Source of the DNA: a virus
Taxonomy: Duplodnaviria > Heunggongvirae > Uroviricota > Caudoviricetes
DNA: 38,517 nt
Direction: 5' to 3' (one strand)
IMG/VR virus record: IMGVR_UViG_2713897161_000001
Location: 1 to 38,517 of that record
A program made the position numbers and the translations under genes. Shown in pieces: positions 1-38,517 of this stretch (its first letter is position 1; every line of letters starts with the position of its first letter). A model generated the notes under the pieces. It saw nothing but the letters and a program-made list of their open reading frames with translations, was not told the origin of the DNA and searched no databases.

Positions 1-143
1 ATCGCATTCAGATATTTGTTTTGATTCACTGATGGAAAAGAATTTCTCTTAAGCAATTCATCTCTCGATGGCATTGGCTTTACGCGTTGGCGAATAATCA
101 TTTCTGCCGGAAGAATGCCGGGATTGTATGTAAGTCCTCTCAT
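1..143 (-). CDS. Hypothetical protein, partial (N-terminal 47 codons; continues beyond window start)
   Basis: Open frame on minus strand from ATG at 141-143 to the window edge; ATGA overlap with the stop of the upstream gene at 140-142. Confidence 0.35.
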
Positions 144-421
144 GATTTACTCTCCACGAACTGGTCAACGGCCATGCTAAGTGACACACCTAAAGTATCG
201 ATATGCTGCTGAATATCCTGTAGCGTCCGCGCTTGAGATAACAGAATTTCACGGTTGCATAACTCTTTAACCAGATGCTCAAACTTGCTGTAATAACCGA
301 TACGACTTAGTGTTTCTTTCCCTGCATTCTCGCCTTCTTTGATAATTCCTCTTTCGCTAAGAATCAGGTCGTGTTTGGTTCCGGTAATAACGTATTTTCC
401 GAGGTCGATGTTTAGCTTCAT
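140..421 (-). CDS. Hypothetical phage early protein (93 aa)
   Basis: ORF in co-oriented, tightly packed minus-strand early operon; no recognisable family. Confidence 0.5.
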
Positions 422-437
422 TGTTAATTACTCCATG

Positions 438-752
438 TTAATTTATTCGTATGCCTGCTCTTTCTTCATCGAGTTTTTTTAGCTTGTATCGCATAGCTCT
501 TACTGAATAAATTGAGCGGCAGGTTGCAATTGCTATTTCTTCTGCGGAGAAATTACCGAAAAGTGATACTTCGGCTCTTGTCCAGCGTCTTCCACGAAGT
601 CGGCTAACAATATCAGCGCCAATTCTTGTTGCTTTCGCCATTACTGCTTTTTCAGTCCTTTCCAGTTTTTCAGCGATAACTTCAACTGGCATTGTCGCCG
701 CCACTTCGCGCAAGAAATCGACTTCCCATTTCTCCCATGGAGTCTTTTTCAT
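438..752 (-). CDS. Hypothetical phage early protein (104 aa)
   Basis: ORF in the same minus-strand operon; no recognisable family. Confidence 0.5.
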   Translation of the reverse strand: MKKTPWEKWEVDFLREVAATMPVEVIAEKLERTEKAVMAKATRIGADIVSRLRGRRWTRAEVSLFGNFSAEEIAIATCRSIYSVRAMRYKLKKLDEERAGIRIN

Positions 753-763
753 AGGCGATACCG

Positions 764-1252
764 TTATTTGATAAGAAGTGAAGGTTTCCCAACTTTGAGT
801 TGAGCGCCGGGGATATTTATTCCTGCTTTTAGTTGGTGTTTGATTGCCAGTTTGTCGGCTTTAATTGTCGTTTCAAACTCAACGTATTCAGGAGGAAGGG
901 CGCTTGAGTCGATGATTTCTACAATTTCTGACGGTTTGCGGATTGTTACCTGGTGAATACCTGCTCGAATATTTTTCTTGCCAACCATTTCAAGCGATGA
1001 CGCTATATATGATTTGATGCTGTCAATCTTATTTTGAATTACTGCTGCTCGTTCATTCAGTGACTTTGCCTCTTCCTTGAGGCGTTCAGCATAACCAGAT
1101 TCATTTTTAATAATGGCGAGAAGTTGTTCTATTTTATCGGTAAATTCTCCTTCCATGCCTTCTATTGTGTCAGCAATCATCTCTGGCTCTAAATCTGAAT
1201 CCATCAATTTTGCGTATTCATTGGCTATTTCATATAGTTTGCTCACTGGCAA
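764..1252 (-). CDS. Gp157-like protein (siphovirus Gp157 family, often adjacent to RecT)
   Basis: 162 aa, N-terminus MPVSKLYEIANEY, coiled-coil character and position immediately downstream of recT; family call from recall; start may be an internal Met (overlaps recT stop by 23 nt as listed). Confidence 0.45.
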   Translation of the reverse strand: MPVSKLYEIANEYAKLMDSDLEPEMIADTIEGMEGEFTDKIEQLLAIIKNESGYAERLKEEAKSLNERAAVIQNKIDSIKSYIASSLEMVGKKNIRAGIHQVTIRKPSEIVEIIDSSALPPEYVEFETTIKADKLAIKHQLKAGINIPGAQLKVGKPSLLIK

Positions 1253-2141
1253 CCTCCAGTTTCGCTTTGCATTCTATGTAAATGGCTTGTACGTTCTGCT
1301 GCAATTTCATTCCAGCTGTCAGGCGATATGCTTCTGCAAAATATCGCTTCAAATCATCCATGTTTTCTGCCTGAGCCATTTCATCGCAAAGAAGTTGTGC
1401 TTTATCCATTATTTCCTGCTGGCGTTTCCGTTCATCTTCGCGGATATCTTCCTCTGATTTGTGCGGCATAACTGGTTCAGTCCACACACCTTCTTCTTCG
1501 TTTAGTACGTGAATAGCACTATCAAGACGTGATGCCTTAGGCCAATACTTGCTTGCACGCTTTACGACCGTCTTTCGCGCCATCTCATTCCAGTGATTTA
1601 CCCATGGTCCTTTATCGCTGAATGCTGCCTTGCTTGTTTTCCTTACAGCCTCAATTTCAGCCAGACTCATCTCTTCTGTTAGATAATCACCTGCTGGTGT
1701 CTTAACTGTGCAGTAAACGCCAACGATATCACCACGATCACCGAAGGCGTTGTATTTATGGGTTGGTGCTTTATCAAGCCCGTTTGACTCATAGGTATCG
1801 TTAGCATGAACAAGTTTTGCCTGACCCCATGAGATAACACCAGACTCCATTGCAATATGGAGCAATCCCATATAACTGATATCAAGGCACACCATGCCGT
1901 CGCGAGGAACCAGATAAGCCAGTTTGCTGGCCGGGTTTAAGGTGATGCCGATCGCCGCAACATTGATGATGGCGTTCTGTGCGCTGGTTGGATTTGCCAG
2001 TGCTGTTTTAGCCAGGTAATCGTTTTTCTGGAAATACTGAATTGCAAACTGGCTTTCCTTAGCCCATGTCACCGTCTGTTCAGTCAATGCTCCGCAGAAT
2101 AACTGCTCCTGCTGTTTAACGAATTCAACGATATTGCTCAT
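1230..2141 (-). CDS. recT: RecT-family single-strand annealing recombinase
   Basis: 303 aa; sequence features recalled as RecT family; position in the early-left recombination module. Confidence 0.8.
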   Translation of the reverse strand: MSNIVEFVKQQEQLFCGALTEQTVTWAKESQFAIQYFQKNDYLAKTALANPTSAQNAIINVAAIGITLNPASKLAYLVPRDGMVCLDISYMGLLHIAMESGVISWGQAKLVHANDTYESNGLDKAPTHKYNAFGDRGDIVGVYCTVKTPAGDYLTEEMSLAEIEAVRKTSKAAFSDKGPWVNHWNEMARKTVVKRASKYWPKASRLDSAIHVLNEEEGVWTEPVMPHKSEEDIREDERKRQQEIMDKAQLLCDEMAQAENMDDLKRYFAEAYRLTAGMKLQQNVQAIYIECKAKLEVASEQTI

Positions 2142-2449
2142 GCAGCTTCTCCAGAAATGTGTCTGCGTTTGAATATTGCGAAGGCATATTCAGCCTTAAC
2201 TCTTTCGGTTATTGCATCCCAGAACCATTCAGCGGCTTTTTCCTGATAGTTACAGTCATCATCTTCCAGCCAGTCGATAGCGTCCTTAGTGTGTTCATCT
2301 GGTTTATATGAGCGAAGCATTTCGCTTATTGGGTCGCAACGTTTGCAGAGGCGATCAACTTCACTGTTGATTCGCTCGTAATCTTCATCAGTAAAACTTG
2401 CGATTATTTGCGATATTTCACGCTTATCATTCAGAGTCAGAATCATCAT
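2138..2449 (-). CDS. Hypothetical phage early protein (103 aa)
   Basis: ORF with 4-nt overlap to recT start; part of operon. Confidence 0.5.
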   Translation of the reverse strand: MMILTLNDKREISQIIASFTDEDYERINSEVDRLCKRCDPISEMLRSYKPDEHTKDAIDWLEDDDCNYQEKAAEWFWDAITERVKAEYAFAIFKRRHISGEAA

Positions 2450-2667
2450 CTTTCTCCTGTTCTTTGTGCTGATTGAGCATTTTGTTCATCTGACGAATGA
2501 ATTCTTCGTCTGACCAGTTATCTGTAAAACTCATTTCCTGCGATACCACGGAATGTTGATCGCTGATTTCATCGCTTTATTTGCTTCAAGCCACATTTTG
2601 GAATCACCAATAAATCTGGCTATTACTGCTTTGTTTTGTGCCGCACGAAGCATCTGGTGATTAATGG

Positions 2668-2802
2668 CTATTTCATTGCGCATAACGCCTCCAGTTGTTT
2701 CTTTGCTGCTCTGATTAATTGTTTAACACGGCGTGATAATTCAGATTCGTGCGGGTAGAAAGCGGACATGACGCCGCTACCCGCGAGCTGAAAGTGCATC
2801 AT
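2668..2802 (-). CDS. cIII-like protein (44 aa)
   Basis: Internal ATGATG start preceded by AAGGAG RBS (reverse complement of 2803-2820); peptide MMHFQLAGSGV...ESELSRRVKQLIRAAKKQLEAL resembles the lambda cIII core helix region as recalled; upstream part of listed ORF 2668..2907 rejected. Confidence 0.45.
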   Translation of the reverse strand: MMHFQLAGSGVMSAFYPHESELSRRVKQLIRAAKKQLEALCAMK

Positions 2803-2865
2803 GGGTAACTCCTTATATTTGATTGCATAACGAAAACGCCTCGAATGAAGCGTTATTGGTATGCA

Positions 2866-2892
2866 TATAAAAAGGCCCTCACACTGGAGGGC
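2866..2892 (-). terminator. Candidate intrinsic terminator (tL-like) upstream of cIII-like gene
   Basis: Hairpin GCCCTC/ACACTG/GAGGGC at 2875-2892 followed on the minus strand by a T-rich run (plus-strand ATATAAAAAG). Confidence 0.4.
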
Positions 2893-2996
2893 AAAGAAGA
2901 TTTCCAATAATCAGAACAAGTCGGCTCCTGTTTAGTTACGAGCGACATTGCTCCGTGTATTCACTCGTTGGAATGAATACACAGTGCTTATTTGTA

Positions 2997-3467
2997 CTAA
3001 TAAAATACCCAATTTTCTGTTTCTTGGTTGTGTCCAAAGTTATATTCAATATCTGGTGTTGATGTATCAATATTTTTCATCCCATCAACAAGAGTTGATA
3101 CAACAGCCAAATCTTGTTTTATTCTCATTAAATGGTATTTCTTCCGGCGCAATAAACTTTCAATAGCAAGTTTCTTCGTTGGGAATGCAAAAGATCTTTC
3201 TGCATTTTTTGCTACTTTCTTAATTGCATATCTATTTCTCCTTTGTTTCCATTCCTGTAACCACTGATTTGGTGCTGGTTTAAAATTAACAATCCAATGC
3301 GCAGGAACCAACCATGCATAATGCTCTGTCTGATGAAAAGCTATATATTGAAGTGCGAATATTTTTATCCCATCTTCTTCAACTGTCGCCTGGAATCTCC
3401 AGAAAACAGGCATTCCATCATGTTCAGTTTCTGATTCAGGAAAAGGTACGCTCCATGATTTTGTCAT
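2997..3467 (-). CDS. Hypothetical accessory protein (156 aa) in AT-rich segment
   Basis: ORF within a visibly AT-rich stretch (about 2930-3340) between cIII-like gene and N; no recognisable family. Confidence 0.5.
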   Translation of the reverse strand: MTKSWSVPFPESETEHDGMPVFWRFQATVEEDGIKIFALQYIAFHQTEHYAWLVPAHWIVNFKPAPNQWLQEWKQRRNRYAIKKVAKNAERSFAFPTKKLAIESLLRRKKYHLMRIKQDLAVVSTLVDGMKNIDTSTPDIEYNFGHNQETENWVFY

Positions 3468-14383: not shown

Positions 14384-14458
14384 GGGTCAGTCGTATAAAG
14401 GTCATTACGGAAGGCTGTTAACCTTCTTATCGTGGTTCGAGTCCACGCTGTCCCGCCA
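14384..14458 (+). tRNA. tRNA-Asn (anticodon GTT), phage-encoded
   Basis: Manual fold: acceptor GGGTCAG/CTGTCCC (one mismatch), anticodon stem GAAGG/CCTTC with loop CTGTTAA (anticodon at tRNA positions 34-36), T-arm CGTGG-TTCGAGT-CCACG, 3' GCCA. Confidence 0.6.
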
Positions 14459-14463
14459 AACAT

Positions 14464-14539
14464 GCTGGTTTAGCTCCAATGGTAGAGCGGTCGCCTTGTA
14501 AGCGAATGGGTAGCGGTTCAAGTCCGTTAACCAGCACCA
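14464..14539 (+). tRNA. tRNA-Thr (anticodon TGT), phage-encoded
   Basis: Manual fold: acceptor GCTGGTT/AACCAGC, D-arm GCTC-CAATGGTA-GAGC, anticodon loop CTTGTAA, T-arm AGCGG-TTCAAGT-CCGTT, 3' ACCA. Confidence 0.65.
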
Positions 14540-33244: not shown

Positions 33245-33535
33245 TCAAAAATATTGAGCTTTAATTATAATAAACACAATAATTACGAACAGGATGTTTC
33301 TAATTATTTTTTGCTTATGAGTAAGTTGTTTTTTTTCTGTCGATTTCCCGGGAGAGTAAAGGTTAGTGGTATGCGACAGCCCCGTGCCGGGAAGGCCATT
33401 TGTCATCTTTACGCCTTTTTTTCCGATGTTAATGGTGGAACCTTTACCACCAATTGAAGTGCTTACTCCGCTTTTACTAATGTTGATCGCGAGTCCGGGC
33501 GCAATCCGGATTCTTTTACGAAATCTAAATCCCAT
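33245..33535 (-). CDS. DUF4236-like small membrane protein (96 aa)
   Basis: N-terminus MGFRFRKRIRIAPGLAINISKSGVSTSIGGKG recalled as DUF4236 signature; C-terminal hydrophobic segment ILFVIIVFIII; opposite strand to all flanking tail genes. Confidence 0.55.
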   Translation of the reverse strand: MGFRFRKRIRIAPGLAINISKSGVSTSIGGKGSTINIGKKGVKMTNGLPGTGLSHTTNLYSPGKSTEKKQLTHKQKIIRNILFVIIVFIIIKAQYF

Positions 33536-36728: not shown

Positions 36729-37633
36729 TGGCAATAAACAACTTTAAACCTTTCGCGCTTGATCCGAACGCTAACGTCACCTCACAAGCTGACTGGGAAG
36801 CACTTCCGGCTCTGCTTTCAGGGTTTACGGCAGGTAAAGCATCCAGCGCACAGGTCAACAAAGCTATTCGGCAAGCCAGCTTTATCGCGGCAGCGTTGGC
36901 GCAGTACACCGCCAACAAAAGCGGGCTGGATGTGCTTGATGATGGAGACCTGAACGGGTTTATATCCAAAATGGGGACCGCTTTCGGGAAAGATTTCCAG
37001 GCGCTTGATGCCACGCTGTCGGCATTAGCTGGGCTCGCAACAGGTGCAAATAAACTCCCATATTTCACTGGAAATGATACAGCAGCGCAGACTGATTTAA
37101 CTTCTGTTGGCCGTGACATTATTGGGAAAAATACTATTGCTGACATTCTCACATACCTTGGTTTGGGAGAAGGTTCTGCGTTGCCTGTTGGCGTACCAGT
37201 TCCTTGGCCTTCAGCCACACCGCCTACTGGCTGGCTGAAATGCAACGGTGCGGCTTTTTCTGCTGAAGAATACCCGGAACTGGCAAAGGTTTATCCGACA
37301 AATAAATTGCCTGATTTACGCGGCGAATTCATTCGTGGGTGGGATGATGGGCGCAATGTGGATTCAGGGCGGGCGTTACTTTCACAGCAAAGTGACGCGA
37401 TGCAAAAGATAAGTGGTTCTGTTGCAGATAACTCTATGGGGGCATCAGCATCCGGTAGTGGTGCCATGACAATTACTGGAGCAGCGGGTACCACATATTA
37501 CGCAAGTGCAACGGCATCATCTTCATACATATATTATAAGACAATAGGTATCGATTCTTCGTTAGTTGCAAGAACCGCGAACGAAAACCGACCGCGCAAC
37601 ATCGCATTTAACTACATTGTAAGGGCGGCATAA
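36728..37633 (+). CDS. Tail fibre protein
   Basis: Start at ATG 36728 (MAINNFKPF); conserved fibre N-terminus style, variable C-terminus; followed by fibre assembly gene. Confidence 0.6.
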   Translation: MAINNFKPFALDPNANVTSQADWEALPALLSGFTAGKASSAQVNKAIRQASFIAAALAQYTANKSGLDVLDDGDLNGFISKMGTAFGKDFQALDATLSALAGLATGANKLPYFTGNDTAAQTDLTSVGRDIIGKNTIADILTYLGLGEGSALPVGVPVPWPSATPPTGWLKCNGAAFSAEEYPELAKVYPTNKLPDLRGEFIRGWDDGRNVDSGRALLSQQSDAMQKISGSVADNSMGASASGSGAMTITGAAGTTYYASATASSSYIYYKTIGIDSSLVARTANENRPRNIAFNYIVRAA

Positions 37634-38238
37634 TGGACACGAAAGAAATCACTTTAGACGAAAACGGATTTGCCACGGAAGCTGGCTTTATTACCGTTTA
37701 CAACTACAATGGCGAAACGCGGGAATATATTTCTTCATCGCTTGAATTCCTGCCTTTTGGTGTTGGTGTTCCTGCTCATTCCAGCACTGATGCGCCAGGG
37801 GAAAGCAAGGCTGGCTTTGCCATCCGCAGGACCGCTGATTTGACTGGTTGGGAGCTTGTGCCAGACCATCGCGGCGAAACGGTTTACAGCACGGACAGTG
37901 GCAAGCCTGTGACCGTATCACAGTTGGGAGAATACCCGGAAGGAACAACCACCACAGCACCATCAACGCCATATGACAAATGGGATGGCGCAAAGTGGGC
38001 TACCGATAACGATGAACAGCACGCGGCGAACGTGTCCGCAGCCGAGCAACAGAAAACAAATCTGCTGAACGCCGCAAATTCAAAAATCAGCCTGTGGCAA
38101 ACGGAACTTCGGTTAGGCATTATCAGCGATGAAGACAAGGCAAGCCTTATTGCCTGGATTGGCTACATCAAAGCGGTGACGGCAACAGATACCAGCACCG
38201 CGCCGGATGTCATCTGGCCTGAACTGCCGGAGGCGTAG
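37633..38238 (+). CDS. Tail fibre assembly protein (Tfa-like chaperone)
   Basis: 201 aa; C-terminal region (LIAWIGYIKAVTATDTS...WPELP) typical of Tfa proteins as recalled. Confidence 0.7.
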   Translation: MDTKEITLDENGFATEAGFITVYNYNGETREYISSSLEFLPFGVGVPAHSSTDAPGESKAGFAIRRTADLTGWELVPDHRGETVYSTDSGKPVTVSQLGEYPEGTTTTAPSTPYDKWDGAKWATDNDEQHAANVSAAEQQKTNLLNAANSKISLWQTELRLGIISDEDKASLIAWIGYIKAVTATDTSTAPDVIWPELPEA

Positions 38239-38470
38239 GCCATTCAATATCTGGCGCACAGGACAAAACTGAGACACACAAGGCTTTGCACTGGGCGCAA
38301 GGCTTTGTGCTCTTCTATGCTGGGTGGCTACATGTTTGAAGATCGTTGTGCCGTATTTGTGACATACACATGACAACATCATGCATCAACTTTCTGTTTG
38401 TGCCATCAACTATTGCTTGGTGAATGCGGTTAATGCTTGCTAAAACAGATAGTTATGATTGGTGCTACAG

Positions 38471-38516
38471 ATTCGTAATGCGAAGGTCGTAGGTTCGACT
38501 CCTATTATCGGCACCA
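38471..38516 (+). other. att core: 46-nt 3' fragment of tRNA-Thr (thrW-type, anticodon CGT) at the prophage end (attR)
   Basis: ATTCGTAATGCGAAGGTCGTAGGTTCGACTCCTATTATCGGCACCA matches my recollection of the 3' part of E. coli thrW; upstream sequence does not form the 5' half of a tRNA. Confidence 0.6.
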
Positions 38517-38517
38517 T

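Follow-up and report, generated by a model that had tools for sequence, protein, structure and literature searches.

A likely thrW attachment half-site at the right end of a contractile-tail Escherichia coli prophage and the terminator-like hairpin beside it

Because the stretch of DNA studied here stops one base past a segment of tRNA gene sequence shortly behind phage tail genes, it raises the question of what kind of prophage boundary it contains and which of the neighbouring sequences belong to the integration machinery. The window, i.e., the whole stretch analysed, is the complete 38,517-bp contig JWHN01000001.1. It comes from the draft assembly GCA_000806175.1, for which an enteropathogenic isolate of E. 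coli O146 was sequenced in 2 x 150 reads and assembled by Velvet with k = 131 (PMC4319573). The contig starts about 2 kb into the early-left region, to the right of the position of int and xis in comparable phages, and ends 1 nt past the core of the attachment (att) site considered below, with the host flank and the int end outside the window. No integrase or xis gene was found in the ORF list of the 38,517-nt window. We consider it likely that the last 200 bases are the P-O half of a thrW att site of a lambdoid contractile-tail prophage with a P22-related tyrosine integrase, which would be attR in the integrated state, and that the repeat noticed next to it is a hairpin lying outside the att machinery.

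The tail module is of the myovirus type, as Baseplate_J and Wedge1 domains are found in the window, and its last gene encodes a tail fibre assembly protein (tfa). The exact tfa protein is on record at two places only, JWHN01000001.1 and a 3-kb Logan contig. The same prophage was absent from the complete E. coli genomes searched, where the best full-length match to the last 918 bases had 83.8% identity, and close tfa matches in complete E. coli genomes had other integration modules attached. No gtr genes were found in the window. A gene for a DUF4236 protein of 96 aa (33245-33535, minus strand) lies on the opposite strand within the baseplate cluster and has a moron-like look; at the matching position, the ES3 prophage has Arc-family and P22 antirepressor-like genes. 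A tandem of phage-borne tRNA-Asn(GTT) and tRNA-Thr(TGT) genes is located at 14384-14539, between the early-right and lysis genes, and is unrelated to the thrW fragment at the window end. Features of the end region are listed in Table 1.

Table 1. Features at the right end of the window; site distances are counted from the first base of the core
Feature	Position	Strand	Basis
Gene of the 201-aa tail fibre assembly protein, final late gene ahead of the att region	37633..38238	+	ORF list; Pfam Caudo_TAP, E = 4e-35
End-of-late-operon module, consensus GACAAAACTGAGACACACAAAGCTTTGCACTGGATTGCAAGGCTTTGTGCTCTTCT, not att-type specific	38262..38318	.	Shared with phages of different att/int types
13-bp hairpin, arms 38277-38289 and 38297-38309, loop ACTGGGC (7 nt), both CAAGGCTTTG copies inside, tail CTCTTCTATG; terminator-like	38277..38309	.	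Terminator scan, RNA folds
P arm specific to this att type, ~155 bp (thrW attP family that includes mEp213, HK75 and SfX)	38316..38470	+	Annotated attP arms; AMSCJX03 attR; family alignment
Candidate Int arm-type site 1, TGTGCCGT, -124	38347..38354	+	TGTGCC invariant in 22 distinct P arms; position of P22 TGGGAC (-125) and SfII TGAGAC
Candidate Int arm-type site 2, TGTGACAT, -113	38358..38365	+	Tandem with site 1, 11-bp spacing; P22/SfII site at -114
Candidate Int arm-type site 3, TGTGCCAT, -72	38399..38406	+	Conserved block in 22 arms; P22/SfII third site at -60
GTGAATGCGG box, invariant 10-mer in 22 distinct arms	38420..38429	+	P22 counterpart GTGAGCGCAG at matching place
TAAAACAG-N-TAGTTA box adjoining the core, conserved in the family	38441..38455	+	Conserved alignment columns
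46-nt stretch identical to thrW positions 31-76, from the anticodon loop to CCA; att core in the wide sense	38471..38516	+	Exact match
Equivalent of the 23-bp attP core in the P22 record, ATGCGAAG-GTCGTAG-GTTCGACT	38478..38500	+	BK000583 core feature = positions 8-30 of the 46-nt identity
Last contig base T, common to all known continuations	38517	+	Comparison of the P'/int side with the host/island side

An earlier note on this DNA had described the window end as the 3' 46 nt of a thrW-type tRNA gene lying behind a tail fibre assembly gene, and both parts of this description were borne out. The 46-mer ATTCGTAATGCGAAGGTCGTAGGTTCGACTCCTATTATCGGCACCA is present only once in the window (0 expected from shuffles), preceded by the Caudo_TAP gene, and is identical to the last 46 nt of thrW in E. 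coli ES3. Identity ends at exactly 46 nt; the 5' half of the tRNA gene is missing, and the 30 nt upstream of the core are phage sequence differing from thrW. ARAGORN called no tRNA at the core, its only two calls in the window being distant phage-borne tRNAs, and the Rfam tRNA model scored 15.7 bits at the core against a gathering score of 29; the segment is therefore a 3' fragment and not a gene. The core was also to be compared with that of P22, and the 46 nt proved to be identical. This agrees with the literature, in which the published 46-base core of SfI, SfII, SfV, SfX, and P22 is the identical 46-mer (PMC3636060). By analogy with P22, strand exchange is presumed to take place within the 23-bp part, whose 8/7/8 split we infer. 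Just upstream of the core, the stretch 38445-38470 has a faint likeness to the 5' half of a tRNA: with it, the Rfam tRNA model aligns over its full length at the above score, and TTGGT and GATA align with thrW. This likeness could be left over from a tRNA gene from which the att site arose.

The sequence in front of the core belongs to a known type. From 38249 or 38262 to 38517, over about 255-270 bp, the window is 92-94% identical to mEp213, mEp043, HK542, HK75, HK446, mEpX2, ECP1, and SfX, and in the 230 bp preceding the core, identity to the attP P arms annotated for thrW-integrating phages (mEp213, mEp043, HK542, HK75, HK446, mEpX2, and SfX) is 93-94%. Several of these related records annotate the matching stretch as a prophage attachment site at thrW ("type CP4-6 / similar to thrW"). 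The order in mEp213 is tail fibre assembly gene, arm of about 225 bp, core, int, and xis, with int and xis on the opposite strand and beginning 13 bp past the core. In the nomenclature of phage lambda, the P arm is the arm on the side away from int; the window thus holds P-O, which is attR in a lysogen. The complete genome of E. coli ES3 provides the integrated arrangement, in which proB, proA, and an intact thrW are followed by int, xis, and, further on, baseplate, tail fibre, and tfa genes, the arm, and the core, and then by an unrelated island. At the attR of a prophage of E. coli AMSCJX03, the arm is nearly identical to that of the window, the core is one base shorter in the record, and CP4-6-type genes come next.

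Two further records with this arm were observed. The Logan contig with the exact tfa (ERR9716434_354, 1-3040) has each of its ends within a copy of the core; between the two copies lie, in order from the 3' part of the first copy to the 5' part of the second, an N-terminally truncated int (266 aa), a truncated baseplate wedge gene, the fibre gene, tfa, and an arm which is that of the window up to the end of the Logan contig, 17 nt short of the window end. It appears to be what remained of a prophage, flanked by partial core copies, after about 35 kb from int to the wedge gene had been deleted. In E. coli E8 (NZ_CP104526.1, 6640-11250), a lambda-like prophage near dacD, far away from thrW, contains tfa, the same thrW-type P arm, and all 46 nt of the core. 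An IS5-family element and a gtrABC cluster come next, and the hairpin module occurs a second time at about 11211; the att region there appears rearranged or composite.

For a wider comparison, IMG/VR was scanned for the 46-nt core, and the 122 occurrences found included 22 distinct P arms of the window type and 17 distinct P' arms. The P arms are strongly diverged and retain TGTGCC...TTTGTG.C, TGTGCCAT, GTGAATGCGG, and the TAAAACAG..AGTTA box, while the P' arms keep, besides the int coding sequence, only a tandem CTTGTGCCRTATTTGTGCCATT. Both sets diverge almost everywhere except at the arm motifs. To locate sites, the window, mEp213, P22, and SfII were aligned on the core that they share, leaving aside one row (ES3_attL) with wrong coordinates, and a motif scan followed. 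The motif is TGGGAC in P22, which, from the present pattern analysis, is probably the arm-type site of that phage, and TGAGAC or TGGGAC in SfII; in both of these phages it is found at -125, -114, and -60 of the P arm and at +95 and +106 of the P' arm. The window-type motif TGTG[AC]C is at -124, -113, and -72 of the P arm and, in mEp213 (the window containing no P' arm), at +95 and +106 of the P' arm. The same layout of five sites in one orientation is thus found by motif scan in three att families. The longer form TGTG[AC]C[AG]T matches eight times on both strands of the 38.5 kb, and three of the eight are inside a 60-bp stretch of the P arm. From this conservation, these three sites are likely to be better candidates for arm-type sites than the CAAGGCTTTG repeat. 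The outermost candidate sites span an att site of about 250 bp, and the attP of P22 is listed as about 260 bp (PMC4111918). The integrases are also related, as the Int of mEp213 has 54% identity to P22 Int and 56% to SfII Int, and the Xis belonging to the arm type of the window has 42% identity to P22 Xis. The invariance of GTGAATGCGG and TAAAACAG-N-TAGTTA suggests that they are likely binding sites of some factor, and our guess would be Xis or a host bending protein. Inspection of the window P arm by eye for the IHF consensus gave no convincing match; in relatives, a perfect WATCAANNNNTTR is present just past the core (AATCAATGAGTTA) in the P' arm, which is outside the window.

Next to this arm, the earlier note had reported a 10-bp direct repeat. 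The repeat CAAGGCTTTG is indeed present twice, at 38279-38288 and 38298-38307, i.e., 10 nt off the reported 38289-38298 and 38308-38317. Two copies compare with 0.14 expected in the whole window, and two were reached in one of 100 shuffles. Because CAAGGCTTTG is almost its own reverse complement, the inverted repeat forming the hairpin of Table 1 also reads as a direct repeat. The hairpin starts 38 nt past the tfa stop codon and was matched by the terminator scan on the plus strand with 13 pairs, six of which are G-C. Its predicted RNA fold has -22.2 kcal/mol (z = -2.0) on the plus strand and -22.1 kcal/mol (z = -2.75) on the minus strand. Most homologues have the perfect palindrome CAAAGCTTTG as their first copy, and no more than 6 of 22 have an exact direct repeat. 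Across these 22 homologues, 91.3% of the stem cells are paired, three pairs (four cells) are changed on both sides, and the covariation score of the stem was reached by 1 of 500 shuffles, the sequences being related to each other; this pairing lends modest support to the structure. Even at a permissive threshold, Rfam assigned the hairpin to no family and yielded only a sub-threshold tRNA match.

The hairpin is contained in a 57-bp module (38262-38318), and within the region it is this module alone that also has matches in phages carrying different integration modules. The module was found in HK106, which has a lambda-type attP, in mEp234 and Stx2 phage 1717 (Stx2-1717), which have an sbcB-type site, and in EC.P3, the P22-like podovirus Gally, and HZ41, which is also filed under Lederbergvirus. 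The hairpin part is present in lambda (NC_001416) at about 27466-27510, approximately 230-265 bp to the left of the lambda core. In strain C 236-04A, a prophage with IntS at argW has a tfa 98.7% identical to that of the window, followed by the module and at once by the 3' end of intS, beside argW; the module there stands between the convergent tfa and intS with no att site involved, and homology to the window ends at 38315. Within the att family of the window, the module is missing from about half of the 22 P arms (12 or so divergent members). In related phages, it is positioned downstream of the last tail gene, mostly close behind it.

On these grounds, the proposal of the earlier note that the CAAGGCTTTG copies are arm-binding sites of the integrase did not survive. 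An exact 10-bp direct repeat, with copies 19 bp apart and adjoining an att arm, is what such sites might look like, and in P22 and SfII the homologous stretch does fall within the P arm. However, the module accompanies unrelated integrases, namely those of the lambda type (HK106 and lambda), the sbcB type (mEp234 and Stx2-1717), and argW/IntS, and about 12 divergent arms in the window's own att family do without it. The copies are at -192 to -164 from the core, while the conserved sites stop at -124 and the P22 attP measures about 260 bp in all (PMC4111918). With no copy of CAAGGCTTTG in the P' arm of mEp213 either, and the repeat inexact in most homologues, we regard arm-type binding of both copies as highly improbable. 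Most likely, the hairpin is a transcription terminator closing the tail-gene operon, and possibly one acting in both directions. Its T-tracts are not those of a textbook terminator: on the plus strand, the tract after the hairpin is weak and interrupted (CTCTTCTAT), and on the minus strand, the T run begins 8 nt past the stem. In addition, the non-stem GACAAAACTGAGAC is conserved beyond the needs of a plain terminator. This conservation favours an explanation, possible in our estimation but doubtful, in which the module has no RNA function and is a relic of a P22/SfII-type P arm left after a swap of integration modules and shared as a recombination linker. In P22 and SfII, the distal P arm, consisting of two arm-type motifs (tandem TGGGACA/TGAGACA) and then TTTGCA-type repeats, is homologous to the hairpin module. 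The P22 sequence TTTGGGACAAAAATGGGACATACAAATCTTTGCATCGGTTTGCAAGGCTTTGCATG (about 21170-21225 of BK000583) and its SfII equivalent align with 38262-38318, the GATGAGACAAAACTGAGACAC of HZ41 is identical to SfII, and the module copy in the window still reads AGGACAAAACTGAGACAC. The relic would comprise two degenerate arm-type sites (AGGACAA and TGAGACA, 11 bp apart) and TTTGCA-like repeats that may have bound Xis, and the breakpoints of homology with other prophages are right at the module edge, 38315. On the other side, phages whose Int cannot use the module have retained it, 91% of the stem cells still pair and some of the changes are compensatory, and outside P22/SfII the module is found downstream of the last late gene, mostly close to it. 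An origin as a relic is compatible with a terminator role. From its sequence relationships, the module may be, or derive from, a P22/SfII-type P arm surviving as a junction for the exchange of tail and integration modules. We offer only tentatively the combined view that these approximately 57 bp are a shared, possibly bidirectional terminator or linker at the boundary between late operon and integration genes, and a protein-binding distal P arm in the P22/SfII types.

A role for the minus-strand hairpin as a terminator or retroregulation site of int, like lambda tI/sib, reached in attP only and split from int in the prophage, seems rather unlikely. The order int, core, P arm, and hairpin in the attP of relatives would make it the first hairpin met by int transcripts, in the SfII record this very hairpin is labelled a putative rho-independent terminator of the int strand, and the minus-strand fold is stable (z as given above). 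However, lambda and HK106 have a separate canonical hairpin with T6 (TTAGCGCAAG...CTTGCGCTAATTTTTT, minus strand) between module and P arm, whose position in lambda we take to be that of tI; the minus-strand T run is distant from the stem, and in the argW prophage no att site intervenes between intS and the module downstream of it. Homology of the module to lambda tI/sib was considered separately and is ruled out by the separate tI-like hairpin in lambda and HK106. Turning from the hairpin, which is most likely a late terminator, to the junction itself, what follows the core in relatives is tttaaatc in attP and attL (towards int), tcttttct at the attR of ES3, and tcacctag in E8. Since the last T of the contig is common to all these continuations, the contig stops where attR diverges from attP and attL. 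From the sequence comparison, we regard the junction as very likely attR. The earlier note had proposed an attR of a thrW phage of the P22/SfV type; the P arm and core of a thrW-specific site were confirmed, with 93-94% arm identity, while attR itself is unproven, as the contig ends at the core. For this strain, attR is thus a well supported yet unproven reading, and integration is something we infer. It is quite unlikely that the junction is instead attP, or an attP-like joint of tandem copies, with the P' arm and int coming next from excised circles or a tandem lysogen; the sequence would then read on into TTTAAATCAATGAG... and int. Both kinds of junction occur in IMG/VR, and a stop at the last base common to attP, attL, and attR would suit an attP. 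At the Velvet setting of k = 131, a repeat of 46 bp should by itself be too short to interrupt the assembly, whereas a fork after at least 131 shared bases (arm and core) would do so; the break thus gives a hint of a second continuation in the reads, for which excised circles, tandem copies, or another element having this arm would be candidates. This hint is drawn from the assembler settings only, and the break is possibly due to unrelated causes, e.g., scaffold splitting. Against attP, the absence of int and xis at the other contig end excludes a closed phage circle, the source is a bacterial isolate genome, in which the integrated state is the norm, and complete genomes of relatives show attR.

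Taking the junction as attR, the following mechanism can be proposed by analogy with lambda and P22. A P22-related tyrosine integrase would insert the prophage into the 3' part of thrW, giving at attR the order of phage P arm, displaced 46-nt copy of the thrW 3' end, and host DNA beyond the contig. The catalytic and core-binding domains of Int would act on core-type sites in the 46-nt segment, probably at about 38478-38500, and its N-terminal domain would bridge to TGTG[AC]C[AG]T at -124, -113, and -72, while Xis and bending proteins would shape the P arm for excision. The hairpin would halt late transcription before the att region and, in the attP configuration, perhaps int transcription too. 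Protein binding at the sites, the position of strand exchange, and terminator activity are all predicted here from the known systems.

The window end is an ordinary prophage end of a well-known type, and the earlier note recognised it correctly. Its value is mainly for annotation, and the understanding of site-specific recombination is unchanged. The right boundary of the prophage is fixed to the base, with the core ending at 38516 and thrW as the insertion site, and a draft contig is shown to break at an att core. As a likely integrase motif, TGTG[AC]C[AG]T could aid att prediction and the mapping of prophage borders for thrW prophages of E. coli, Shigella, and Salmonella.

Among known systems, mEp213, mEp043, HK542, HK75, HK446, mEpX2, ECP1, and SfX are closest to the window, sharing the 46-nt core, the arm at 92-94% identity, the place after tfa, and the TGTG[AC]C motifs. 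These mEp213-type relatives are mostly siphoviruses, and SfX is a podovirus (PMC3636060); they are known as free genomes in which core and int are contiguous, whereas the window has a myovirus-type tail and ends at the core. P22, whose attP and attR have been studied experimentally, has the identical core, an Int with 54% identity, and five motifs at the same distances from the core. Outside the core, however, its arms cannot be aligned with the window by BLAST, its motif is TGGGAC instead of TGTG[AC]C, and its hairpin module is inside the P arm, between sites 2 and 3, while that of the window is outside the arm. For SfI, SfII, SfIV, and SfV, the thrW core and integration next to proA have been published (PMC3636060). 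SfI, SfII, and SfV are myoviruses, as the tail genes suggest for the prophage of the window, but the Shigella phages SfI, SfII, SfIV, and SfV carry gtrABC between the tail genes and attP, where the window has no gtr, and the arms of these four phages are of the TGAGAC/TGGGAC type, unlike that of the window. The attR of lambda (P-O-B', with P1, P2, Xis, Fis, and IHF sites) resembles the window in its heterobivalent Int, a P arm of about 150 bp, and tandem arm sites, and lambda also carries the hairpin module; it differs in a core not derived from a tRNA gene, another arm-type consensus, an unrelated arm sequence, and a separate tI hairpin.
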